The notes beneath the pieces are model-generated. The model made no database searches. It had not been told where the DNA came from and was given only the letters and a program-made list of their open reading frames with translations. Positions 41,838-63,706 of a stretch of DNA of 64,000 nt are shown here, piece by piece. The stretch lies in assembly GCA_001823065.1 (NCBI GenBank), contig MHTJ01000002.1:53532-117531 (forward strand). Reading direction: 5' to 3'. The translations under genes and the position numbers were made by a program. This DNA comes from Candidatus Vogelbacteria bacterium RIFOXYD1_FULL_44_32. Its GTDB lineage: Bacteria; Patescibacteriota; Minisyncoccia; Phycocordibacterales; XYD1-FULL-46-19. How positions within the stretch are numbered: the stretch's first letter is position 1; every line of letters begins with the position of its first letter.

Positions 41838-43166
41838 ATGGCTGAAGAACCGATCGTAAATAATCTGGCGACAAGCAATGACGCCCCGGCAACAGTGGCG
41901 CCAACCGAAATTAAAGTGCCCCCCGTCGCTGTTACCAACAATGTGCCGACTCAAGCGGTGAGTCCAACCGCCCCACTGGCCCCCAAAGAAAATTCGGCCC
42001 AGTCTTTTCGAGACCGTCTGGAAACAGCCAAGCTAGCGATGGAGGGCCCCACCAGAACTTTGAAAAGAGAGGAAGATGAAACTGAAGCCAAAGTTAAAAC
42101 TGAAACAGCAGACATTGAAAAGCAAATTGCCCTGATAAATCATAAAAAAGAAAAACTAGAAATAAATTGGGTGGTCTTAGATACCAAAGCCAATGAATTA
42201 AAAACTTTGCTGGCCCCCGTCAAACAGGAGGAAGAGGATATTGAATTGGCTGAGGACCAACTAGAAGGGGAGGAACACACCACCACCGATGTTGTGGCCC
42301 GCCAAGATATTGAAAAGAAGCGTTGGGCCACCCAAGATAAACGGAAAGACCTAGAAAAACGAAAATGGGAACTGGAGACAAAAGTTTTAGATATTGAAAA
42401 TGAACTCAAAAAAAATACGACTGAATATCAATCCCTCTTGGATGAAGAAGAAGTATTGAAAAAGAAGCTGGAAACTTTAGAATACGAAATCCAGGCCGCT
42501 AAAGAACGAGTCCGCCAAGAGGAAGACAAGCGACGGCAAGAAGAGGAAATAAAAATTATTGCCGTCGAAGAAAAACGACGAGCGGAAGCCACTAAAAAAT
42601 TAGCAGAGGAAGAAATAAGAAAAAAAGAACAACTATTGGCCCAAAAGAAAGCGGAAGAAGAAGCGCACGTCCAGGCGGAAATGGTCAAGAAAAAATTGGC
42701 TGAGGAAAAACGTCAGCAAGATGATGCGGACCGTCTCAAGAAAATTGAAGCTGAACAAAAACAACGAGCGGAATTAGAAACTCATCGCCAGGAAGTGGCT
42801 CGCCAAGCCAAAGCAGTCGCCACTACACAGAGCCCCGACCCCGAAATAGTGCCGACCGATTTAAAAACCGACGACCAAAAACGAGCCGAGCTTCTAGAAA
42901 AAGCCCGTCAGGCAGCTTCGGGTACAGTAGCTCAGCCCATTCCACCCGCTTCACTAGTAGAAACGGCTGACCTCACCGATCCCCAGGTTGAAGGTAATAT
43001 TACCCCAGCCGAAAATAATCTAACCGATGATGAGGGTGTCCCGTCTTTCACGCCCGGTGAAACTTCAGCCTTACCCCAAATGAGAACCTTTCGCTCCGAT
43101 GCGGAAGAGATGTTGACCCCCGAACAAATCAAGGAGGCCAAGAAAAAATTCCCGTGGTTAAAATAA
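41838..43166 (+). CDS. hypothetical Glu/Lys-rich coiled-coil protein
   Basis: Low-complexity E/K/A repeats; no TM helix. Confidence 0.55.
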   Translation: MAEEPIVNNLATSNDAPATVAPTEIKVPPVAVTNNVPTQAVSPTAPLAPKENSAQSFRDRLETAKLAMEGPTRTLKREEDETEAKVKTETADIEKQIALINHKKEKLEINWVVLDTKANELKTLLAPVKQEEEDIELAEDQLEGEEHTTTDVVARQDIEKKRWATQDKRKDLEKRKWELETKVLDIENELKKNTTEYQSLLDEEEVLKKKLETLEYEIQAAKERVRQEEDKRRQEEEIKIIAVEEKRRAEATKKLAEEEIRKKEQLLAQKKAEEEAHVQAEMVKKKLAEEKRQQDDADRLKKIEAEQKQRAELETHRQEVARQAKAVATTQSPDPEIVPTDLKTDDQKRAELLEKARQAASGTVAQPIPPASLVETADLTDPQVEGNITPAENNLTDDEGVPSFTPGETSALPQMRTFRSDAEEMLTPEQIKEAKKKFPWLK

Positions 43167-43198
43167 AAACAGGTTTGAATTAATTTAATACTCCACCA

Positions 43199-44497
43199 AT
43201 GGAGGAAAATGATATAGCTAAAAAACGTGAAGCCGCTAAATTGGCGATGTCTGCTGGACGTCAGCCTCTGAATGGTTTTTCTGGTGGTCCAACTATCACC
43301 CCCGCGAGCTCACTCGAAACCGAGAACAAAATAATCGACGCCGAAAATGAAATCAACCAAAAAAGAGAAGAGGCGCGCAAAGCGATGGAAGGAATAGAAC
43401 GACGTAAAAAAAGAGAAGACGAAGAAAAAATTAATTTACAAAGTGCCGCTCGGGCCCAAGAAATTGAACTAATAAAAAAGAAACGAATATTAATTGAACA
43501 AAAACTAGAACAAGAAAAAATAGCCGCCCAAAAAACCGCGCAAACCAATGAGGCTAAAGAAGAGGAAACTTATCGCGAAAAGGTGGCAGAGTCTAAAGTA
43601 GAAATCGACCGGCTTAAAAACGACCTCGAACATATCACCCCTTTTCACAGTCTAAATACCGATATTACCGATTCCCATGATGAAAAAATAATTAGCCAAA
43701 CTGCACTGGCAATTGCCGAGAGAGAACAAAAATTAAATAAAGAACAACATATTCAAAAAAAAGCCACAAAAAATGTTATCCTCCAGGGTTTGGCTTGGGT
43801 GGTAGCTTTTGTGTTTGTGGGTAGTAGCCTCGGGGTATTGTATTACGTCTCCAATCTAAACAAAAAACAACAAGCTGGGGTAGATTTAAATATTCACAAA
43901 TCAATTATTTTTGTGGAACAGGAAAAAGAAATCCGGATTGATGGTAAAACTCCCAGTCAGATCAAGGCAACCATGGTGGCCACCGGCCAAACTGTAGCCG
44001 AGCACGATAGTTTGACTGATATTTATTTCAGTCGCACTAAAAAAGTAGAAGAAAAAGTAGTCAGTGAAAATTTGGGTGCCGGCGATTTTTTGGCGGTCAC
44101 CAATGCCGCCTTCTCACCTGATTTTACTCATTTTTTAAACCAAGAATTTGTGGCTGGTGTTTATACCAAAACCCTAAGCGAACAATCTTATATCTATCTG
44201 TTCAAAACTCGTAGTTTTGAACATGCTCTCGATACTCTGTTGCAAGATGATAAAAATATGACCATTGCCCTATACGACGGGCTAATCAATGAGCCCACTA
44301 AGAAAGCTATCGCAATGAGCACCTTTAAGGACGAAATGATTAATAACATTGATAGTCATGTTTTGCGCGACGCCGAAGGTAAAATTATTATGTTATATGC
44401 CTTTTTTGACCGCACCACCCTTATTTTTGCCCAAAATGAAGCCGCGATGCAAAAAGTACTCACCGCATTAGCCCGACCAACCACTTCGACCAAGTAG
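43199..44497 (+). CDS. hypothetical protein with coiled-coil N-terminus, central TM helix and C-terminal domain
   Basis: TM helix VILQGLAWVVAFVFVGSSLGVLYYV. Confidence 0.55.
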   Translation: MEENDIAKKREAAKLAMSAGRQPLNGFSGGPTITPASSLETENKIIDAENEINQKREEARKAMEGIERRKKREDEEKINLQSAARAQEIELIKKKRILIEQKLEQEKIAAQKTAQTNEAKEEETYREKVAESKVEIDRLKNDLEHITPFHSLNTDITDSHDEKIISQTALAIAEREQKLNKEQHIQKKATKNVILQGLAWVVAFVFVGSSLGVLYYVSNLNKKQQAGVDLNIHKSIIFVEQEKEIRIDGKTPSQIKATMVATGQTVAEHDSLTDIYFSRTKKVEEKVVSENLGAGDFLAVTNAAFSPDFTHFLNQEFVAGVYTKTLSEQSYIYLFKTRSFEHALDTLLQDDKNMTIALYDGLINEPTKKAIAMSTFKDEMINNIDSHVLRDAEGKIIMLYAFFDRTTLIFAQNEAAMQKVLTALARPTTSTK

Positions 44498-47936: not shown

Positions 47937-48503
47937 ATGGTAAACAACCACAAACAAAAATTAGTTTCGTTTTATGAAAGACATAAACGCATGCCAACCT
48001 ATACCGAGATGATGAAACTGTTTGGCTATCGTTCCAAAAATGCAGTTTTCAAATTGGTAGCCAAACTAGAAGAAGCGGGGATAGTAGCCAAGGACCACTT
48101 GGGTAGGTTGCTACCCACCAACAGTTTTAATGAAGTGCCACTACTGGGCCTAGTCAAAGCTGGCTTTCCTTCGATGGTCGAAGAAGAACAAAATGACACC
48201 ATGAGTCTAGATGACTTTCTAATCCAGAAAAAAGAATCGACTTATATTTTAGAAGTTGATGGCGACTCGATGATCGACGCTCATATTAAACCCGGAGACC
48301 TAGTAATAGCCGAGCGCACCGAACAAGCCAAAGACGGCCAGATAGTGATAGCCGAAGTGGACGGCGAATTTACCATGAAATATTTCCGCCAAACCGGAAA
48401 CAAAACTTGGTTGGAACCCGCCAACAAAAAATACAAACCAATCTACCCAGAAAATGATTTGAAGATAACCGCTATAGTCAAAGGCGTCATTAGAAAATAT
48501 TAA
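47937..48503 (+). CDS. lexA: LexA repressor
   Basis: N-terminal wHTH; S24 peptidase domain with GDSM and VAEVDGEFTMKYF motifs. Confidence 0.9.
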   Translation: MVNNHKQKLVSFYERHKRMPTYTEMMKLFGYRSKNAVFKLVAKLEEAGIVAKDHLGRLLPTNSFNEVPLLGLVKAGFPSMVEEEQNDTMSLDDFLIQKKESTYILEVDGDSMIDAHIKPGDLVIAERTEQAKDGQIVIAEVDGEFTMKYFRQTGNKTWLEPANKKYKPIYPENDLKITAIVKGVIRKY

Positions 48504-48515
48504 TCACTAAATCCC

Positions 48516-49793
48516 ATGCCAAACTCTTGGCCCCGCGCTATTGTCCATATCGACGGCGACTGCTTTTTTGTTGCCTGCGAGGTGGCAAAAAATCCCAAAC
48601 TAAAGGGCCGCCCAGTGGTGGTGGGCGCCGACCGGGGTATTGCTTGTGCGATGAGCTACGAGGCAAAAGCCCTCGGTGTTACACGAGGTATGCCGGTGGG
48701 TTGGATTAGGAAAATTTGTCCTAGCACAATTATCCTCCCCGAGGACCCTGCCAGCTACACCTTGTACTCTCGTCGAATGTACGAGATTGTGCGTCGTTAC
48801 ACACCAGAAGTAGAGGAATATAGTATCGACGAATGCTTTGCCGACATTACTGGTATGCACCGTGTTCTACATAAACCTTATATCGAAATTGCCAAAGAGA
48901 TTCAACAAACCCTAAAAAGCGAACTCGGTTTAGACTTTTCGGTCGGCCTGTCGGTAAACAAAGTCCTTGCCAAGATTGCCTCCAAGAAACGAAAGCCGAA
49001 TGGTTTTACGGTTATTGACTGGCCTAGTATTGGCGACTATTTAAAAACAACATCTATCCAAAACCTGTGGGGTGTGGGTGGCCAAACAGCCAGACAGTTG
49101 TACAAACTAGGAATAAAAACTGCTTCTGATTTTGCTACCACCGCGGGCACTGAGATAGCCAAAAACTTTTCCAAACCGTACCAGGAAATATGGCATGAAT
49201 TGCAGGGCAAATTTATTTTTCTATTAAATACCAAAAGTCAGCCCAACAAAACATCAATCTCAAAAACCAAAACCTTTGGCACCACCTCTAGCGACCAACA
49301 CTTTGTCTATTCGGCCTTGTCGGCCAATATTGAAGGGGCATGTTCCAAACTGAGAAAGTCTAAATTGTTGACCGATAAAGTATCTATTTTTTTGAAGACC
49401 CAGCAGTTTGAGTATTACCACTTAGATTTTGTCTTACCATGGCCGACGGCCAACCCTAAAGATATTTTGGATATCTGCCACCAAAGATTTGCAGAAGTTT
49501 TTTCTAAAGACAAAAAATACCGCGCTACCGGTGTGACTTTGTCTGGCTTAAAACCAGCAAACACCGAAACCCTAAACCTGTTTGGCGAAGCCATAAGAAA
49601 AGAAAACAATAAAATTATTTATCACCATATTGACCTGTTAGACCATCGCTTTGGGGCCAATACTATTTTTCTTGCTTCATCTTTGTCGGCACTAAAATAT
49701 CAAAAAATAAAAGATGAGGGTTCATCTTCAAAAATATTTTCACTAAACAAAAAGAGGCACTTAGGCCTCTTGTCGTTGGGTAAGGTTACCTAA
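48516..49793 (+). CDS. dinB: Y-family DNA polymerase IV
   Basis: IVHIDGDCFFVACE catalytic motif; 425 aa. Confidence 0.9.
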   Translation: MPNSWPRAIVHIDGDCFFVACEVAKNPKLKGRPVVVGADRGIACAMSYEAKALGVTRGMPVGWIRKICPSTIILPEDPASYTLYSRRMYEIVRRYTPEVEEYSIDECFADITGMHRVLHKPYIEIAKEIQQTLKSELGLDFSVGLSVNKVLAKIASKKRKPNGFTVIDWPSIGDYLKTTSIQNLWGVGGQTARQLYKLGIKTASDFATTAGTEIAKNFSKPYQEIWHELQGKFIFLLNTKSQPNKTSISKTKTFGTTSSDQHFVYSALSANIEGACSKLRKSKLLTDKVSIFLKTQQFEYYHLDFVLPWPTANPKDILDICHQRFAEVFSKDKKYRATGVTLSGLKPANTETLNLFGEAIRKENNKIIYHHIDLLDHRFGANTIFLASSLSALKYQKIKDEGSSSKIFSLNKKRHLGLLSLGKVT

Positions 49794-50859: not shown

Positions 50860-51852
50860 TTAAAATGGATTTCGGGCACCGCGGATTTCGAAGTGGATAT
50901 GCGGACCAGTCGAGTTGCCAGACGAACCAAGCCGACCAATAGTCTGACCTTGAACTACCACCTGCCCAGGGGCCACCGCCACATCCAACATATGGCCGTA
51001 CAAAGTCTGGGTACCATTGTCATGACTAATCACCACATAGTTGCCATAACCACCATTCCAACCACCGGTCCGCGCCACAATCACAGTCCCAGCGGCGGCA
51101 GCGTAAAGCTCGGCCCCAGTTGTATTGGCTAGGTCTACCCCATTGTTGCCATGAATCCCTTGGGTTTTTAGACCACCAACCATCGGACGAATAAAATAAC
51201 CAGCGTAGGTCGGTAAAGTGGCGTATTTATTGGCCGTGGAAGGCGACGACCCATCTTTCTTGCCAGGGGTAGTGGGATTTTTCTTTAGTAATGGCAATTC
51301 ACCATGGGGCACAATAATTTCTTCACCAATCTTGAGCGAAGCATTTTGTTCTAACCCGTTGTAACTACCGATTTCTTCCGCATCGGCACCATAGAGTTTG
51401 GCAATTTTGGCAATAGTGTCACCACTTTTTACCATATGACGAACACCCGAGATTGGGAGAATAACCAACACATCACCCTCGGCAATCGCACTGGTTTTTT
51501 TGATATTGTTGGCCCACATTATGGTGTTCACCGACACCCCATACATATCAGCGATTTCGGACAAAGTATCACCGCTTTTAACTGTATAAGTACTAATTTG
51601 GTCGTTTTTAGGGATGAAAATAGTAGCACCGGCGGTACCAGCTGGACCGACATTGGGCACTAAAGCTGAGCCATCTTCTACCAACAGTGGCCCACCCCGA
51701 CCAAAGAAGGGACTAGGGGAATGGACTGGTTCCAAAAGAGCCATTTTTTGCGAATTTAAAACTGTCGCCGACTGTAAAGCGACCAAGCTAGGGTTTTGAC
51801 TGGAGCCAAAACCAAAAAAACCAGCATAAGCTGTCCTGTAGACTAAAACCAT
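50860..51852 (-). CDS. M23 family metallopeptidase with two LysM domains
   Basis: LysM repeats (YTVKSGDTLSEIA..., VKSGDTIAKIA...); M23 HxxxD...HxH motifs (GIHGNNGVDL...GPHIHFEI). Confidence 0.85.
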   Translation of the reverse strand: MVLVYRTAYAGFFGFGSSQNPSLVALQSATVLNSQKMALLEPVHSPSPFFGRGGPLLVEDGSALVPNVGPAGTAGATIFIPKNDQISTYTVKSGDTLSEIADMYGVSVNTIMWANNIKKTSAIAEGDVLVILPISGVRHMVKSGDTIAKIAKLYGADAEEIGSYNGLEQNASLKIGEEIIVPHGELPLLKKNPTTPGKKDGSSPSTANKYATLPTYAGYFIRPMVGGLKTQGIHGNNGVDLANTTGAELYAAAAGTVIVARTGGWNGGYGNYVVISHDNGTQTLYGHMLDVAVAPGQVVVQGQTIGRLGSSGNSTGPHIHFEIRGARNPF

Positions 51853-53401: not shown

Positions 53402-55762
53402 TTATTGTCTCAAGCGGAAAAGAATTTCTTGTTCCACCTGACCTAAATCTCGCCCGTAGGTAAGGCGCGACAGCTCTTTGAGTTGTTCCGCCAGCTCGCG
53501 GGAGCCACCATCGACCCGAGGCACTTTAATATTGAAAGGTTTGGCTGGCTCACCATTTATTAAAATTTTTAAATAAGCATTTTGATTTTCAATGGAAATT
53601 AAATCATTTTCCGTAAAGGTCTGGCCGAAATGTTTGACTAAATGTTCAGCATCAGTGGTACCCACCCGAAAAGCGGCTAGCGAACCAACGTTGCCAAAAA
53701 CTGCCTCACGAATTTCATCGGTGAGTTGAGCAATAAATTGGTGCGCTAAAATTAAATTTAACCGATACTTCCGCGCTTCGGACAAAATAACCGAAATAGA
53801 GTCGGTGGTGAAATTTTGAAATTCATCAATGTATAAATAAAAATCTTTACGGTCATTTTCCGGAATATCAGTCCGCGACAAAGCCGCCAGTAGTAACCGC
53901 CCCGTACAAATCATCCCCAACAACCCGGCATTAATATCACCAATTTTACCTTTAGCAAGGTTCACCAACAAAATCTTCCGTCCATCCATTACTTCGCGGA
54001 AATTAAAGGCCGACTTAGGCTGGCCAATAATCGGTCGCATATAATCGTTGGCAATAAAATTACCAAACTTGGAGGTAATATAGGGCGTCATATTGGCCAG
54101 GCCCTGCTCACCGGTCGTTTTAGACGCTTCTTTTTCCCAAAAATCAATCACAGTTGGATTACTAATCCGCCCCAACTTTTTATTACGAAAAGCCGGGTCG
54201 GTAAATATCCGGGGTACCTCCATTAGGGTCGCCGGTTCATATTTGGCGTCTTCCATCAACAAAAGGAGGGAATTCCTCATATATTGCTCAAACATTGGCC
54301 CCATCGTCTCTTTATCAAACAACCGGTTGAAGATAGATTGAATTTCGTTGACAATAAAAGTTTTTTCCTCGGGGCGGTCAAAGTTATATTCCAGCATATT
54401 TAGCCCCAAAGGCCGACCCACATCGCCCGGGTTGAAAACAATCACATCTTCGAGACGCGAAGCGGGGACTCGTTCCAAAACTTTGTCCACCAACTCACCG
54501 TGGGGGTCGATAACACACAGACCCTTGCCCGCCTCCATATCTTGAGCAATGGTATTTAACATAAAATACGATTTACCGGTACCAGTCTGACCAATACAAT
54601 AAAAATGGCGCCGGCGGTCATTGTCGGCCATCCGCACCGGCTTCATATCCCCCCGAAACAAACTTTCACCCACCACCACTCCAGCTGGAGGTAAATTTTG
54701 GGGTGGGGGGGCTTCCCGACTCTTTAGCCACTTGATCCGTGGAATATCCGTGGTCACAGTCGGAAAGTGAAAGATGCTAGCAATTTCCTCGGTATTTAAA
54801 ACTATAAACTCTTTTGGCTCTGACTCACGGAAAATATATTGATGCACCAATTTTTTTATTTTTTTACCCTTGGGCAAAACCAGCTTAAAGCCATTGCGCC
54901 GGGGTGAAGAAAATTGGCTAAAAGCCCCCCCGATGGCGAGCATAATATCACCAGCTTCATTGTCGGTATCACCAGCAGCTACCACCCGGACATTGACATT
55001 GAACAATGGTTTGCGAATCTTGGCTTCAATTGATTCAATCACTTCATTGTCAATCGGCGCTGAGTCTAATTTTTTATCATCATCTTTTTTAGATGAAGAA
55101 AACAATTCGCCGGCAATTTCTGACACGGGAGCAAAAGTTTTATAACTTTTTAATATTTTTTTTAGTTTTTCACCTTTCCTTAATTTGGCCACAATATCTA
55201 AAGCGGTTTTTTTAAATGACGTCCCAGCTGGTGAAATCACTAGTTGAAGGGCCGCCCCATCACCCTCTTCCCGTAGGCGTGATAAGGTCGAGACAATCGG
55301 GGCAAAAGAATCTACTTCCGCCTCTCGATAAGTACGAATCGGAACAAAAGGAGCTTCTTCCAGTGCCAAATAACCAGCTCGCACTCCATGCTCGTTGGCA
55401 AAAATAGTATAATCGGCCACTTCATCTACCTGGGAATCGGGGAAAAAACCTTGGATTTGGCGAGCAACAAACTCGAGCTGGTTCCGAGGCGCACCAACAT
55501 AAAAATAGATATCGCCCCCAGAGCTATGGACCGCTGTCTCTAAAACAAATGGTTCTTTAATAGCAGTTAAAGCTGACAAAAATTGCTCAAGTAAATTAAT
55601 ATCAAATAAAAAATCCTTCTGGTCCTTGGCTTCGCGCCGAGCAATTTTGACCAATAATATTTTAAGATTTAGTGAATCAAACCGTTGGCGGTGCCATAAA
55701 ATATAAACACCACCAGCCATTAGGCCTAAAATAATAATTAGTAAAATAAAATATACGGTCAT
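53402..55762 (-). CDS. membrane-anchored FtsK/HerA/VirD4-superfamily P-loop ATPase (T4SS coupling-protein-like or DUF87-like)
   Basis: N-terminal TM helix; Walker A GQTGTGKS; Walker B LYIDEFQNF; C-terminal ARKYRLNLILAHQFIAQL (the RKxGxxxxxAxQxxxQL motif of TrwB/VirD4 and HerA). Confidence 0.75.
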   Translation of the reverse strand: MTVYFILLIIILGLMAGGVYILWHRQRFDSLNLKILLVKIARREAKDQKDFLFDINLLEQFLSALTAIKEPFVLETAVHSSGGDIYFYVGAPRNQLEFVARQIQGFFPDSQVDEVADYTIFANEHGVRAGYLALEEAPFVPIRTYREAEVDSFAPIVSTLSRLREEGDGAALQLVISPAGTSFKKTALDIVAKLRKGEKLKKILKSYKTFAPVSEIAGELFSSSKKDDDKKLDSAPIDNEVIESIEAKIRKPLFNVNVRVVAAGDTDNEAGDIMLAIGGAFSQFSSPRRNGFKLVLPKGKKIKKLVHQYIFRESEPKEFIVLNTEEIASIFHFPTVTTDIPRIKWLKSREAPPPQNLPPAGVVVGESLFRGDMKPVRMADNDRRRHFYCIGQTGTGKSYFMLNTIAQDMEAGKGLCVIDPHGELVDKVLERVPASRLEDVIVFNPGDVGRPLGLNMLEYNFDRPEEKTFIVNEIQSIFNRLFDKETMGPMFEQYMRNSLLLLMEDAKYEPATLMEVPRIFTDPAFRNKKLGRISNPTVIDFWEKEASKTTGEQGLANMTPYITSKFGNFIANDYMRPIIGQPKSAFNFREVMDGRKILLVNLAKGKIGDINAGLLGMICTGRLLLAALSRTDIPENDRKDFYLYIDEFQNFTTDSISVILSEARKYRLNLILAHQFIAQLTDEIREAVFGNVGSLAAFRVGTTDAEHLVKHFGQTFTENDLISIENQNAYLKILINGEPAKPFNIKVPRVDGGSRELAEQLKELSRLTYGRDLGQVEQEILFRLRQ

Positions 55763-55765
55763 AGA

Positions 55766-56146
55766 CTAATTGACTAAACCTCGTTTTTTTAGTTCAGCGT
55801 GAACCTTGTCGGTTAGGGTATCGTGAAAAGCATCTTCGTCTAAAAAGGAAAGTTTTTTGGCTTCAGCGATGGTTTTAGCTAAACCCTTGGTAAACACGCG
55901 GTCCACCAAATAAGCTACAGTTTGTTCAACTTCCTCCGGCAAAGTTTCTAAATAAGAACTTTCACTGCCTTCGGCGACAGGTGGGACGACCCGGGGGGTA
56001 GCGCTAAAATCAGTTATAGCTTCACTAACCAAGTCTTTATCAGATATGATTTTGTTTTCTGTTTCCAAATTTCGTCGTTTTTCCGCAATCCGCTCCTCTA
56101 GTTCAGCAATTTCTGCTTCGATATGTTGTGCTATTTTTTGCTCCAT
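55766..56146 (-). CDS. hypothetical coiled-coil protein, co-operonic with the ATPase
   Basis: 4-bp intergenic gap; 126 aa. Confidence 0.5.
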   Translation of the reverse strand: MEQKIAQHIEAEIAELEERIAEKRRNLETENKIISDKDLVSEAITDFSATPRVVPPVAEGSESSYLETLPEEVEQTVAYLVDRVFTKGLAKTIAEAKKLSFLDEDAFHDTLTDKVHAELKKRGLVN

Positions 56147-59003: not shown

Positions 59004-60650
59004 TTAAGCTCCACAATCGTATTCTTTAGCTTCCCTTACATTATTGACATGATTTTGGGCCACATCGGTTGTACCCTCTCTCATCATTTGTTCATTGCGA
59101 ACCGCCCGACCGCCAGTGTCATCGGCATAACCACCGGGTGCTGTGTCAGTCACCTCGTAGGCCGCCCGTTCCCAATTCTCATCTTTAATCGCCCCCCACA
59201 TTTCATGAAAACCACCCAAACCACTACTGCCTTGCGCCCCCATATTATAAGCCATATCAATTAGCACAATCTGCCGGCCTTCGGTCAGTGATTCAAAGTG
59301 TACCCCATTAGCCGCGGCCGCATTTCTAGCTTGGTGTTCATAACCTGGGTAATCCCGTTCAAATAAATCACCGACTTCATCATTGGTTAAAGTTGCATTC
59401 GGATCAACTCCATCGCCAGGCACAATAAAGTGTCCAACACCCACCGAACGCCCCCCAGCATCGGGATAAGAAGTGGTGTGCCACCCCTCGTTGGCAATAA
59501 TATACTGCTTAGCCAGACATTTATTTAGGTTTTGGGGCTCACGAGCGCCGTCAAAAATAACATGCCAGTGGCGAGTCACCCCATCCCGCTGTTCGTCCAC
59601 AAAGCGGGTCCGCCCCACATCTAAAGCTAAAACATACTGTGTACCATAACCGACATTTTCCGGTGCACTAATCGTGTTTTCCTTAATATAGTCGTCTAAA
59701 CAGGCGGTTCCTAAACGCAAATCTACCACCGCCTTACACTGAGCATGGCTCGAGTGGCCCGGCTCGGTCCCTCCCGTAATCACCACTGGGCAACTGGCCC
59801 CCACCTTACCTTTTAGCTCAATTAGGCCATCAATGGCAATTTGAGGTAGACAGCGAAGGTCAGTACAGGAATAGAGAGGCTTACCATTACTATCAGTACC
59901 AGTCTTGGTCGACTGGCACTGATCATTAGGGTTTTCGCGCGGACAAGGACCTTTATTGATCTGAATTCCCCCCGCCGTCAGCTCGGAGCGAGTTTCTTCT
60001 TCGCTTTTGCCATCGCGACAGCTACAAGAACATGGCTCAATCGTTTCTGAGTTGTCTTCACGGTCAGTACAGCCATCGTCATCGGGATAATCAACCTTGC
60101 CATCACCGTCGTTGTCACGACCGTCGGAACATTGGGCATCAGCCTCACTGTTGTCTCTGGCCGAAGTACAACCGGTGTCATTGGGGTAGTCGGTCCGACC
60201 ATCACCGTCGTTGTCACGACCGTCGGAACATTGGCTTTGGGTCTCCTCGGGAGGGGGGTTGGTATTTAGCTGACCTCCTGAAGTACCAACCATAAAAATT
60301 CGCGGGAAAGCTATCCGATTATTTACCACTTTTGGCCGACAACCATGAGACGTAATCACCAAACACTGGGCCGCTCCTTCCCATGTTCCTAAAATTTGTT
60401 CTCCAATTTTCATTTTATAAAACTGGTACAAAATACTGCCGAAATCGAAAGAAAGGACCCGGGGTAAGTCATCTTTAGGTGGCCTGACTGTAATAATCCA
60501 ATTGACTGAACAATTGCAAAAAAACTTATCAACAATCAAACCACCAAATGGATTATTTTCAGCTAAAGCGGCCAAGGCCGGCACTGGCAGCAAAAAATTG
60601 ACCACAAAAATAGCGAGTAAAAGCGATTTTAACCAGTGGCGACTAAACAT
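59004..60650 (-). CDS. secreted protein: MopE-like Cys/Asp-rich metal-binding repeats plus a C-terminal T4-type (GH24) lysozyme domain
   Basis: Signal peptide; two QCSDGRDNDGDG(R/K)xDYPxDxGC repeats; lysozyme signature NEGWHTTSYPDAGGRSVGVGH (EG...YxDxxGxxTxGxGH) and IDMAYNMG. Confidence 0.8.
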   Translation of the reverse strand: MFSRHWLKSLLLAIFVVNFLLPVPALAALAENNPFGGLIVDKFFCNCSVNWIITVRPPKDDLPRVLSFDFGSILYQFYKMKIGEQILGTWEGAAQCLVITSHGCRPKVVNNRIAFPRIFMVGTSGGQLNTNPPPEETQSQCSDGRDNDGDGRTDYPNDTGCTSARDNSEADAQCSDGRDNDGDGKVDYPDDDGCTDREDNSETIEPCSCSCRDGKSEEETRSELTAGGIQINKGPCPRENPNDQCQSTKTGTDSNGKPLYSCTDLRCLPQIAIDGLIELKGKVGASCPVVITGGTEPGHSSHAQCKAVVDLRLGTACLDDYIKENTISAPENVGYGTQYVLALDVGRTRFVDEQRDGVTRHWHVIFDGAREPQNLNKCLAKQYIIANEGWHTTSYPDAGGRSVGVGHFIVPGDGVDPNATLTNDEVGDLFERDYPGYEHQARNAAAANGVHFESLTEGRQIVLIDMAYNMGAQGSSGLGGFHEMWGAIKDENWERAAYEVTDTAPGGYADDTGGRAVRNEQMMREGTTDVAQNHVNNVREAKEYDCGA

Positions 60651-60758
60651 ATTGGTATTAGTTTAGCAAATCTTGGCTCTTTACTCTACTGATATCCCCG
60701 TTTAGCGCTTAAAACAAATGCAAAACTATACTTCTCATACTATAATATAAACAATAAC

Positions 60759-61499
60759 GTGAAGAAAAAATTGGGGCATAAAAAAATAATTGTTGGAGCG
60801 GTGATTGGGCTTACACTGGTTGGTCTTTTTCTGTGGTGGCTGGGTAACAAGGTAGAGGAGATTGCGCGCGCCACCGACCTAAACGCCACTTCCACTGAAA
60901 CTATCACCAAACCAGCCAGCTTTTGGTCTAATCTGTTTGGAGATAAAGACAATGAAGAAACCACCACCCGACCAGCTTCCACCAAAAAAGATGGGGTCCG
61001 CCCGCTGGGTGCCCCCACCGTCACTTTGGCTGATTTGAAAATCACCAAAAACGAAACCACTAGCTCAATTGAAATCTACGGTCGCCAGTTGGCCACCACC
61101 CTAAAGCCCCTTGGCACCCCCCGGCCCAATGAGGCGGAACTTTTGCTTAGCCTACTAGAAACCAAAGACGAGACGACTGCCAACAAAATATATCAAGCGG
61201 GCAAAGTTCACTTAAAAATTTTCAACAACCTCAAGACAATGACTGTGCCAGAAACAGCTTCGGCTCTACACCTAAAGGTAGTCCAGAACATCGCTAAAAC
61301 TATGGTGGCTCTGGCCAATATGAGCGAGGCCCTAGAAGACCCCACTATGGCTATTTCTGACGGCCTCAAATACCAAGTTGAAGCCCTAGAACTTTTTGAT
61401 TCGATTGCTGCCTTAAATGATTATTTTGTCACCAAGGGCATAGTATTTACCCCCGACGACAAGATAGTGATTTATGTTAATGTCGACGACCAAATATGA
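60759..61499 (+). CDS. membrane-anchored or secreted hypothetical protein
   Basis: N-terminal TM helix or signal anchor IIVGAVIGLTLVGLFLWWL. Confidence 0.55.
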   Translation: MKKKLGHKKIIVGAVIGLTLVGLFLWWLGNKVEEIARATDLNATSTETITKPASFWSNLFGDKDNEETTTRPASTKKDGVRPLGAPTVTLADLKITKNETTSSIEIYGRQLATTLKPLGTPRPNEAELLLSLLETKDETTANKIYQAGKVHLKIFNNLKTMTVPETASALHLKVVQNIAKTMVALANMSEALEDPTMAISDGLKYQVEALELFDSIAALNDYFVTKGIVFTPDDKIVIYVNVDDQI

Positions 61500-63706
61500 A
61501 ATCCTTTCCGTCCCGAGACATTTTTATATTTAGCCTAGTGGCCCTGGTTTTAGTGGTAATTTTAGCCAACCACCATGTGCTAGCCCAAACTGAAGAAACT
61601 GATTTGGGGCCCCTACAACAAGTACCCCCGGACACCGGTGGCACCGAAGAAACCGACCCCAGCCCTTTTGATATTGAACCATTACCCGGCGAGACCCCGA
61701 GCCCCAACCCCAGTGACGACGGTTTTGAATCCGACCTTACCGATATTTTTAACGGCGAAATAGGCGACAATGGCAATACCTCTAATCCTAGTGACGATGC
61801 CTCAGCCGCCGCCGATGAAGCCAATAAAACCGCTCGTGAAGCAATTGTGGCAGAGCGCAAAGAAGATGAAAACCTTAACGGAAATGGCGAGAGCGAGGTA
61901 GATGACTGCGAACAAGAATATGAAGTCCGCGAGCGTGACCGCGCTGGGCGCTTTGTGCCGGTAAAAGAAGTCGAGGGCATGCTAATGCAGTTTGCTCGCG
62001 ACACCAACCAGCAGGTCGGCAAAATAAACCTAGTCAACCAGCAAATGTGTTTACATTTAAAAGCCCTAAAGCGAGTCGCTTATAAATTTGAAATTGCTGA
62101 ATTTTTAGAGAAGCCTCAGTTGCGCACGGTGGCTGGCCAAGCGATCAATGAATATAAAAAGCAGTTGTTTAATTTTGTGAACACTGGTTATCAAAGCGAC
62201 TTCCGCGAAAACTCACCCCAGTTTGTGGATGATCAAGAGGAAAATTTTGCCGAAGGAGCCGCCGAAGCTACCGTGAGAGTAATAGACGCTGTGGAAAAAA
62301 CCAGCTCACCCTATAAAGATGTAGCTAGAGAAACTATTCAAAAACAAACAGCTAATAATCTTGAGACTGAACTGTCTTGTCCATTGAGCGCCGAGGATAT
62401 TCAAAAAGCTAACAACCCAAAATCAGATATGAAAGCCTCACAAAGGTTGGACACCCTTCTAATAGTAAAATCACAACCTGGTTGTAGTACGCGAGGGACA
62501 TATCTCAAAACTATGAATTTATTATCAGCAGAGATTGCGGACGAAAACGCCAACCGTAGATTGTCATACATAGCCTCTGGAGGATACAAACCAATTAGGG
62601 AATGTATGGAACAAAATGCCAATGGTGAATGTCTAAAATATCGCACCACTGTGCCCGTCTCGGCTATTAAAGACACCGTCGGCAGTGCCCTAACCGCCAA
62701 CTTAGAAAGATATTTGGTCGCCCAACCAGGCGATATAGACAAAGAAAATGCCAACGGACCTCAACTACCAGAACTTCTTACTCTTACCCCTTCTTATAGT
62801 GGAAATATTGCTATGCCCACCGGAGATGAAACCAACCTAAACAGTGGCCTAACCCCTCCCACCGGCGGAGACCCGGACCCAGGTAGTGGTGGGGGGACAG
62901 GCGGTGGGGGTAGTGGCGGAGGCACGGGCGATATTGGCGACAATTTCGACCTAGTCGACTTTTTGCAGGACTATCTAGATTTTAGTCTACCGACAGAACC
63001 AGCTATCCCCGACGAAGCCACCTTGCGCAATCCCGAGCTACCACCCCTTATTTTTACCTATTACCGCACCCCCAGCGAAGCCGATCTAAACAATGACCCC
63101 AATCTGGTCAACTATATTCGCCTCGGCTGGATGTCGCTAAACGCCCAAAAATGTAAAGTGGGCAACAATTGGATCGGAGGCACCTTTATGGAAGACTCGG
63201 TCGAGGCTATATATGATGCCGAAGACAATATCGAGATAGCCAACACTAAAGTGATTGATATGCCCCTTACTTTTTATGCCTATCTAACCCGCGAAAGAGA
63301 AGTGGTGACCGATAATAATATTTTACGCCCCGACGAAACCAGTATCGATATCGACAACTTTGCGCTACCAACCTCGGTTTATAAAAAGCTCCTCCAAGTT
63401 ACGGCAATAAATTTTCACGCCTTCGATGTTAAAGAGGGTGACATTTTTACTCTGCACATAAAAACTGCGCGTGGGGGATTTGAAGATATTTATCTCGAGA
63501 TTTCAAACCAGACTAGTATTCCCCAAGTTATCAGCCAATTTCAAACCGCTATCACAAGCGCCGGCAGTAGCGAACTGGCTAACTTTAAGATTGTCTATAA
63601 CACTACCGATGGCATAATTTCTATTGTGACCGAACCAAAATATGTAATTGTATGTGAAAACAATAAGGGGGTATCGTCAAAGACAATAACGGTAGAAAGA
63701 CGTTAA
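61496..63706 (+). CDS. large secreted hypothetical protein with acidic N-terminus and Gly-rich linker
   Basis: Signal peptide IFIFSLVALVLVVILANHHVLAQ; GGDPDPGSGGGTGGGGSGGGTGD linker; start overlaps the previous stop by 4 bp. Confidence 0.65.
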   Translation: MKSFPSRDIFIFSLVALVLVVILANHHVLAQTEETDLGPLQQVPPDTGGTEETDPSPFDIEPLPGETPSPNPSDDGFESDLTDIFNGEIGDNGNTSNPSDDASAAADEANKTAREAIVAERKEDENLNGNGESEVDDCEQEYEVRERDRAGRFVPVKEVEGMLMQFARDTNQQVGKINLVNQQMCLHLKALKRVAYKFEIAEFLEKPQLRTVAGQAINEYKKQLFNFVNTGYQSDFRENSPQFVDDQEENFAEGAAEATVRVIDAVEKTSSPYKDVARETIQKQTANNLETELSCPLSAEDIQKANNPKSDMKASQRLDTLLIVKSQPGCSTRGTYLKTMNLLSAEIADENANRRLSYIASGGYKPIRECMEQNANGECLKYRTTVPVSAIKDTVGSALTANLERYLVAQPGDIDKENANGPQLPELLTLTPSYSGNIAMPTGDETNLNSGLTPPTGGDPDPGSGGGTGGGGSGGGTGDIGDNFDLVDFLQDYLDFSLPTEPAIPDEATLRNPELPPLIFTYYRTPSEADLNNDPNLVNYIRLGWMSLNAQKCKVGNNWIGGTFMEDSVEAIYDAEDNIEIANTKVIDMPLTFYAYLTREREVVTDNNILRPDETSIDIDNFALPTSVYKKLLQVTAINFHAFDVKEGDIFTLHIKTARGGFEDIYLEISNQTSIPQVISQFQTAITSAGSSELANFKIVYNTTDGIISIVTEPKYVIVCENNKGVSSKTITVERR

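Follow-up and report, generated by a model that had tools for sequence, protein, structure and literature searches.

Type IV secretion systems (T4SSs) of the Patescibacteria were described in a 2025 survey as monoderm, MPF-FATA-like systems, with VirB2-like pilins in about 1,950 assemblies (PMC12102498). Homologues of VirB1 rarely occur near virB4 in this phylum; other hydrolases have been suggested instead, and peptidase and lysozyme homologues adjoining virB4 in S. epibionticum have been cited as candidates for the VirB1 role (PMC12102498). In monoderm T4SSs, the wall hydrolases pair a cutter of glycan strands with a peptidase for local opening of the wall (PMC12102498). Saccharibacteria are epibionts of Actinobacteria and cannot grow epibiotically without their T4SS (PMC10633639). 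Wang et al. (2023) reported that SEML1_0006, with two lysozyme-like domains and a cysteine proteinase domain, and SEML1_0007, with a C-terminal Hedgehog/DD-peptidase domain, both from the T4SS cluster of S. epibionticum, are essential for its epibiotic growth (PMC10633639). An open question about ultra-small epibionts is how they bring an essential T4SS and its unusual pilus across a wall of Gram-positive type, and how they reach inside the host. Here we analyze a gene at positions 59004..60650 (minus strand) of a 64,000-nucleotide stretch of Candidatus Vogelbacteria bacterium RIFOXYD1_FULL_44_32 (contig MHTJ01000002.1, positions 53,532 to 117,531; hereafter the window). It is predicted to encode an exported protein of 548 amino acids (aa) that joins a lysozyme domain to a peptidase-like domain, and it lies next to a T4SS operon.

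Gene and domain organization

The gene is a single open reading frame (ORF) that fills the interval exactly. A search of 5.8 billion clustered proteins returned full-length homologues with 85% (P0001), 60% (P0002) and 58% (P0003) identity, and an identical 548-aa protein was found on a 104-kb metagenome contig. We take the ORF to be a real gene because the homologues span its full length in other metagenomes. The predicted protein begins with a signal peptide, which is followed by an N-terminal module with four cysteines, two short acidic repeats, a middle domain resembling LAS zinc peptidases and a C-terminal lysozyme domain of family GH24 (Table 1). The complete set of modules occurs in four proteins of the same search, ours included. 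The four-module architecture is therefore rare, and it is a new combination within the multidomain wall hydrolases associated with secretion. The mature product is acidic (81 Asp and Glu residues versus 47 Lys and Arg) and contains 20 cysteines.

The original prediction for this gene, made from the DNA letters and a list of ORFs, was a secreted fusion of MopE-like metal-binding repeats to a T4-type lysozyme. Its lysozyme half holds. The headline overlooked the peptidase-like middle domain and the N-terminal module, together about 260 residues, and thereby left about half of the protein undescribed.

A GH24 lysozyme domain with both catalytic residues

Judged by its sequence, the C-terminal domain is a T4-type lysozyme of family GH24 in which the catalytic Glu and Asp are preserved. 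Scanned in isolation, it matches Pfam model PF00959 (Phage_lysozyme) with a score of 30.4 bits, above the cut-off of 22.3 bits (E 5e-7); the precomputed PF00959 match carries the mark 'weak'. The lysozyme motifs quoted in the original prediction, NEGWHTTSYPDAGGRSVGVGH and IDMAYNMG, are both located in this domain. A profile built from five homologues matches T4 lysozyme with an E-value of 2e-16 over residues 10-161, and BLASTP places E11, D20 and T26 of T4 lysozyme on E388, D397 and S402; for the catalytic Glu and Asp, the profile alignment agrees. E388 and D397 are both invariant in the five homologues, as is N-E-G-W. The position of T26 is more variable, with Ser in our protein and S, T, T and D in the homologues, a conservative change in most of them. 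The catalytic glutamate, whose loss had been named as a threat to the lysozyme assignment, is thus present.

The other concern raised at the outset was a better match to a non-catalytic phage baseplate protein. The five-homologue profile does match the lysozyme domain of gp5 equally well. Because the gp5 domain is, as we take it, a catalytically active member of the same GH24 family, this match does not speak against the assignment. The domain is flanked by Cys378 and Cys546, both conserved, which would form a disulfide staple around it, and it is predicted to act as a muramidase.

The Pfam scan of the whole 548-aa protein returned zero matches at E<=1, yet the isolated domain passes the gathering cut-off of PF00959; the lysozyme domain of such proteins may therefore escape automated annotation. 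We suspect that the acidic repeats are the reason for the empty scan of the whole protein.

A LAS-like domain family linked to T4SS loci and pilins

The middle domain matches no Pfam family when isolated (E<=10), no NCBIfam model and no PDB sequence. It is nevertheless far from alone. When 1.8 billion representatives were searched exhaustively with HMMER, 300 relatives were obtained at E<=1e-3. Conserved residues of the domain are E296, H299, H302, D310, E353, H361 and H363. In an alignment of 103 sequences, E296, H302, D310 and H361 are invariant, and C245, C262, a T-G-G-T motif, G298, H299, E353, W362 and H363 are nearly so. Two of the conserved stretches resemble a metal site: H302-x7-D310, which is one residue beyond the classical H-x(3-6)-D range, and H361-W-H363. 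Shorter members of the family show an E-x2-H-x-H spacing.

AlphaFold2 run on the 103-sequence alignment gave a model of the domain (pLDDT 87.7, pTM 0.83), for which Foldseek found no significant match in the PDB. Aligning the family profile by hhalign with hand-entered sequences of Shh-N and VanX produced weak local matches (E 0.045 and 0.12) in which TGGTEPGHSSHAQCKAVVDL of the middle domain is paired with SSHSRGSAIDL of VanX and with its Shh-N counterpart. H302 and D310 then fall on H141/D148 of Shh and H116/D123 of VanX, which we take to be the zinc ligands of those proteins, and E353...H361-W-H363 parallels E177...H181-x-H183 of Shh. A search of PDB sequences with the family profile returned just membrane proteins, matched through its pilin columns. 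The M15 and M23 families (Peptidase_M15, M15_2, M15_3, M15_4, VanY and M23) gave no match to the isolated domain at E<=10 and none to any of 85 relatives. We describe the domain as LAS-like, with a Hedgehog/DD-peptidase fold, and place it outside every described M15 family. It is probably a zinc peptidase that acts on peptide stems.

As far as its named members show, the family is confined to the Patescibacteria. A search with a five-sequence alignment found three close loci, and the metagenome-assembled genomes (MAGs) concerned are those of Candidatus Saccharibacteria and Patescibacteria group bacteria. These close relatives make it reasonable to assume, as was done at the start, that the window comes from an epibiont.

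Most of the relatives are about 300 aa long, with a VirB2-like T4SS pilin in front and the LAS-like domain behind it (P0128, P0131, P0140 and others). Of the 85 relatives, 51 match PF18895 (T4SS_pilin) in their N-terminal part at E<=0.01, the best at 8e-14 and several under the gathering score; the match of P0140 is weak, and P0137 has no Pfam match. Two relatives of pilin length lie within PrgI-TraC-like-VirB4 clusters beside dnaA in Paceibacterota MAGs (L014:10001-10915 and L015:10001-10870). A pilin that bears a putative peptidase is unusual. We found no paper on this domain family, on its pilin fusions or on the architecture of the gene, in a literature whose coverage is incomplete. An undescribed LAS-like family with ties to the T4SS loci and pilins of Patescibacteria is a more notable outcome than the fused hydrolase itself.

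Signal peptide and N-terminal module

Residues 6-30 form the only hydrophobic segment of the protein. The basic residues R4 and K8 come before them and AxA sites after them, with candidate cleavage sites at residue 27 (ALA/A) and residue 30 (ALA/E), and all homologues begin in the same manner at the signal-peptide end. The pattern fits a Sec-exported, disulfide-bonded protein and agrees with the secretion proposed originally. No membrane anchor is present besides the N-terminal Sec signal.

The module that follows is conserved, with its four cysteines, in 7 proteins. Its known distribution rests on 7-9 proteins that were found by routes other than a search with the module itself. An AlphaFold2 model built from 7 sequences is of moderate confidence (pLDDT 71.8). 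The position of the module is invariant: it stands after the signal peptide and ahead of whichever hydrolase domain is present. It may serve in targeting or docking, a role that we suggest with low confidence.

Acidic repeats

The two repeats share 18 of 22 residues and are identical at 68 of 99 positions at the nucleotide level; a tandem repeat in the DNA was looked for, and none was found. They are the only two matches to the repeat motif in the six-frame translation of the window, and both are present in P0001-P0004 as well. The Cys/Asp repeats reported originally are thus real, but their relation to MopE is not borne out: PF11617 (Cu-binding_MopE) matched neither the whole protein at E<=1 nor the isolated repeat region at E<=10, and nothing points to copper binding. 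The nearest model is the NCBIfam 'acidic double-disulfide repeat' NF033662, which matched two stretches at E 8.4e-8 with 31.8 bits, under its cut-off of 41 bits. The repeats here resemble those of both models in being short, acidic and bracketed by cysteines, and differ from NF033662 in having two cysteines per copy rather than four. Besides the two cysteines, each copy contains a DNDGDGxxD stretch. DxDxDG is a calcium-type rather than a copper-type motif. P0071, P0270 and P0122 lack the repeats yet retain their other modules, and the repeats can therefore be read as dispensable. They are probably a short acidic linker stiffened by calcium.

A conserved hydrolase slot divergent from a T4SS operon

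On the 104-kb contig, the operon that diverges from the hydrolase gene encodes proteins of 246, 736, 685 and 213 aa, a small GIY-YIG protein, PrgI, a TraC-like protein and VirB4. The genes from the 685-aa protein through VirB4 lie downstream, beyond the window. The other flank carries rsmA, convergent with the hydrolase gene, followed by uvrD, a 126-aa gene, a VirD4-like ATPase gene and a gene for a LysM-M23 peptidase. The P0001 and P0003 loci keep the same layout, and the divergent arrangement is repeated in L001-L005 and L010-L013. A scan for promoters and terminators gave little information, with no strong sigma-70 consensus in the divergent intergenic region.

Every lineage examined has a hydrolase with the N-terminal module in the slot divergent from the T4SS operon, and the location of this slot in or beside the T4SS cluster is kept across them. 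What varies is the catalytic part, which is GH24 only, peptidase-like only, or both. P0270 and P0071 consist of the N-terminal module and GH24 only, and P0122 of the N-terminal module and the LAS-like domain only. No other recognizable wall hydrolase was found among the operon genes scanned. The original guess that the enzyme assists passage of the T4SS fits this conserved position.

When the slot protein is without a LAS-like domain, the second gene of the operon bears one. In L010 this gene encodes a protein of 1102 aa (L010:461-3769, minus strand) with TGGTEGGHSAH...HWH at residues ~110-240. Residues 150-560 of the 736-aa protein of the window match residues 583-1048 of the L010 protein (E 3e-12). 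Besides the L010 protein, seven relatives of 1069-1375 aa likewise have an N-terminal LAS-like domain, and a gene of the same type is the neighbour at L011:5832-9050 (minus strand). The body shared by the 736-aa protein and these relatives has no Pfam match, nor has the 246-aa product of the first operon gene. Because the bodies and the first operon genes are homologous and the location of the LAS-like domain switches, the neighbouring genes are in a fusion/fission relation. By this comparison of sequences, the LAS-like domain has moved between them in different lineages.

Table 1. Features of the hydrolase gene and its surroundings in the window
Feature	Position	Strand	Basis or remark
Whole gene; predicted exported multidomain cell-wall hydrolase, 548 aa	59004..60650	-	ORF list, homologues; stop codon 59004-59006
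Predicted signal peptide, aa 1-27/30, MFSRHWLKSLLLAIFVVNFLLPVPALA/ALA/E (slashes, candidate cleavage sites)	60561..60650	-	Sole hydrophobic stretch, AxA sites, read directly
N-terminal module, aa 31-127, PFGG...CxCS...LGTW...C...C...VGTSGG, four Cys	60270..60560	-	All-beta, OB-like
Acidic repeat 1, aa 140-161, QCSDGRDNDGDGRTDYPNDTGC	60168..60233	-	Direct reading; DNDGDGRTD is a DxDxDG-type motif
Acidic repeat 2, aa 173-194, QCSDGRDNDGDGKVDYPDDDGC	60069..60134	-	Direct reading
Middle domain, aa 207-366, LAS-like (Hedgehog/DD-peptidase fold), putative zinc peptidase	59553..60032	-	
GH24 (T4-type) lysozyme domain, aa 378-548	59007..59519	-	PF00959, T4 lysozyme profile, BLASTP, PHROG_7
Predicted catalytic E388	59487-59489	-	Aligned to T4 lysozyme
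Predicted catalytic D397	59460-59462	-	Aligned to T4 lysozyme
Divergent intergenic region between hydrolase gene and T4SS-linked operon, 108 bp	60651..60758	.	ORF coordinates
First operon gene, 246 aa, N-terminal transmembrane segment	60759..61499	+	Conserved partner; homologous to 214-aa first gene of L010, E 8e-24
Second operon gene, 736-aa exported protein	61496..63706	+	Homologous to larger proteins elsewhere
VirD4-like coupling ATPase	53402..55762	-	Weak Pfam TrwB_AAD_bind, T4SS-DNA_transf, TraG-D_C; DUF8128 on record
Conserved ~126-aa gene ahead of VirD4-like gene	55766-56146	-	
LysM-LysM-Peptidase_M23 protein	50860..51852	-	Pfam M23 E 3e-29, LysM E 7e-25

The VirD4-like gene keeps its position in L001, L003 and L012. 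Between the VirB4 operon and the pair that it forms with the conserved ~126-aa gene lie uvrD, rsmA and the gene for the hydrolase. The LysM-LysM-Peptidase_M23 gene past the VirD4-like gene, whose synteny is kept in L012/L013, offers another candidate for a wall hydrolase of this T4SS.

Several smaller features of the region were recorded. The GIY-YIG gene (85-87 aa) stands between the ~200-aa gene and prgI at L001:1858-2115 and L003:2021-2284, is absent in L002, and looks like a mobile insertion of the homing-endonuclease type. A transposase gene of the Y1 (IS200/IS605-type) class lies between rsmA and uvrD at L003:10476-11156 and L011:12136-12798. At 47937-49793 (plus strand) of the window, a LexA/UmuD-like Peptidase_S24 gene is directly followed by one for a translesion polymerase of the ImpB/DinB family; the two look like a compact SOS-type pair in a reduced genome. 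A strong AT-skew peak in the window (0.38 in 42001-44000) is accounted for by a pair of neighbouring genes (41838-44497, plus strand) whose Glu/Lys-rich, coiled-coil-like products are 442 and 432 aa long; the second product has one transmembrane segment.

Proposed function

Taking together what can be inferred of export, of the two enzyme activities, of zinc and calcium binding, of T4SS coupling and of the target wall, we think it rather likely that the gene encodes a Sec-exported, bifunctional peptidoglycan hydrolase that is coupled to the patescibacterial T4SS and opens the wall locally for the T4SS and its pilus. The protein would be exported by the Sec pathway and then form its disulfides, and the N-terminal module may tether it to the wall or to the T4SS. 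By means of E388 and D397, the GH24 domain would cut the bonds between N-acetylmuramic acid and N-acetylglucosamine (MurNAc-GlcNAc), and the LAS-like domain would use a His/Asp/His metal site to cleave peptide stems or cross-links. Jointly, the two domains could open the wall locally and so give passage to the T4SS and its VirB2-like pilus. The wall crossed would most likely be the cell's own, and possibly that of the host at the contact site. Such a role would be akin to that of VirB1, PrgK, TraG or CwlT, carried out with different domains.

A secreted protein with two bond-cutting domains and a possible binding module also has the layout of a lytic enzyme, and having a Sec signal of its own and no membrane anchor it could act at a distance. 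It might thus be an effector directed at other cells, one that cuts the wall of a host or competitor for access or for nutrients and wall fragments, its proximity to the T4SS then reflecting a shared role in host interaction. The peptidase-like relatives fused to pilins would face the partner cell, and the epibiotic life of Saccharibacteria on Actinobacteria, with its essential T4SS, is in keeping with such a role. However, no immunity or inhibitor gene is evident next door, nothing shows specificity for foreign peptidoglycan, and the same evidence suits remodelling of the cell's own wall. We consider a host-directed effector, the main alternative, possible but doubtful, and it overlaps with a T4SS-coupled hydrolase rather than excluding it.

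A bolder proposal builds on the distribution of the middle domain, and we regard it as rather unlikely in its full form. It holds that the domain is a Patescibacteria-wide family of LAS-like wall peptidases, the 'missing VirB1', which is borne on pilins in most lineages; in the lineage of the window, it would have been joined to GH24 and a targeting module as a free two-bond cutter that opens the host wall at the attachment site. A pilin-borne LAS-like domain would make an enzymatically armed pilus, cutting peptide cross-links while it extends into or through the wall. If this is true, the two-bond cutter would give direct molecular access to the way in which epibionts break into their hosts.

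The immediate neighbourhood of the gene also invites a more ordinary explanation. Wall hydrolases of the RpfB/YabE type commonly adjoin rsmA (ksgA), the pairing of rpfB and ksgA being familiar from Actinobacteria, and the gene lies directly beside rsmA and uvrD. It may then be a housekeeping autolysin for growth or daughter-cell separation, a substitute for an RpfB/YabE-type hydrolase, that adjoins the T4SS through inherited gene order. S. epibionticum has SEML1_0667, an RpfB-like hydrolase (DUF348/G5/transglycosylase-like), between rsmA and uvrD, far from its T4SS and non-essential (PMC10633639). The syntenic loci examined, moreover, may all stem from related lineages. Against this, the gene is convergent with rsmA and not co-transcribed with it, and the middle domain moves among the slot gene, the second gene of the T4SS operon and the T4SS pilins and is found inside the T4SS clusters of distant Paceibacterota. 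Because inherited gene order cannot explain this shuffling with T4SS proteins, we consider the autolysin improbable. As a separate observation, the window's lineage has a different hydrolase in the place beside rsmA from the RpfB-like one of S. epibionticum (SEML1_0666-0668).

GH24 is the classic phage lysozyme family, the protein matches the PHROG_7 endolysins (E 2e-8), and tblastn finds phage endolysins and gp5 tail lysozymes. We nevertheless reject as hardly credible both a phage-derived endolysin, including one of the signal-anchor-release type, and a prophage remnant: phage sequences match the GH24 part only, with 26-30% identity, and this architecture was found in no phage, the neighbours are rsmA, uvrD and T4SS genes in a chromosomal position kept across lineages, and the signal peptide, ~350 residues ahead of the lysozyme domain, has ordinary AxA sites unlike those of a signal-anchor-release protein. 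A MopE-like module for copper or metal acquisition, with metal binding as its central function, is rejected with like confidence, since its Asp-rich, Cys-bracketed repeats, and the PF11617 carried by some of the proteins they retrieve (P0011 and P0021), are outweighed by the failure of PF11617 on the repeats themselves, which are two short, dispensable, calcium-type copies between globular domains.

Comparison with known systems

The T4SS-coupled hydrolase that we favour, with its undescribed domain family, would supply candidates for the question of how the T4SS crosses the wall: a GH24 muramidase, a new peptidase-like family whose domain moves among slot, operon and pilin proteins, and a shared N-terminal module. 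If the domains are active, they might be used to probe or to lyse the walls of Actinobacteria or Saccharibacteria; if inactive, the protein would be an ordinary, oddly assembled autolysin.

Each catalytic domain has a well-known comparison group. The GH24 domain agrees with T4 lysozyme, at ~26% identity, in both catalytic residues (Glu and Asp) and over the domain as a whole, and differs in the Ser in place of Thr26 and in the apparent Cys378/Cys546 staple. T4 lysozyme-type enzymes that stand alone are ~170 aa long, whereas here the domain comes last in an exported protein of 548 aa. Muramidases of this type are already known to serve secretion systems, namely SagA of Brucella and TtsA of Salmonella (PMC8334348). 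For the middle domain, the comparison group is that of the LAS zinc peptidases: MEROPS M15 (VanX, VanY, LdcB and the phage L-Ala-D-Glu peptidases), MepA and Shh-N. Unlike these, it contains an additional TGGTE.GH element, which is invariant, and an N-terminal subdomain rich in Cys.

Like PrgK (pCF10), TraG (pIP501), CwlT (ICEBs1), TcpG (pCW3) and the VirB1 of diderms, which are exported multidomain proteins encoded with conjugation-type T4SSs, the protein is predicted to be exported and is encoded beside a PrgI/TraC-like/VirB4 operon. The known ones combine an SLT or glucosaminidase domain with CHAP/NlpC-P60 or LytM, whereas here GH24 is combined with a LAS-like domain; the known hydrolase genes lie inside the operon, whereas this one is divergent from it. 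The Pfam models for SLT, CHAP and NlpC/P60 match neither the whole protein nor its isolated domains, so that it shows no homology to SLT or CHAP domains of the VirB1/TrsG/CD419 type, and we therefore regard the protein as a putative analogue of VirB1, not a homologue.

A further parallel lies within the same phylum. Set beside our protein by their descriptions, SEML1_0006 and SEML1_0007 of S. epibionticum ML1 show the same pairing of lysozyme-like and Hedgehog/DD-peptidase-like domains beside virB4. They are two separate, much larger proteins, and their lysozyme families, PF01832 and PF18013, are unlike the GH24 domain that is joined to a LAS-like domain in the single protein described here.

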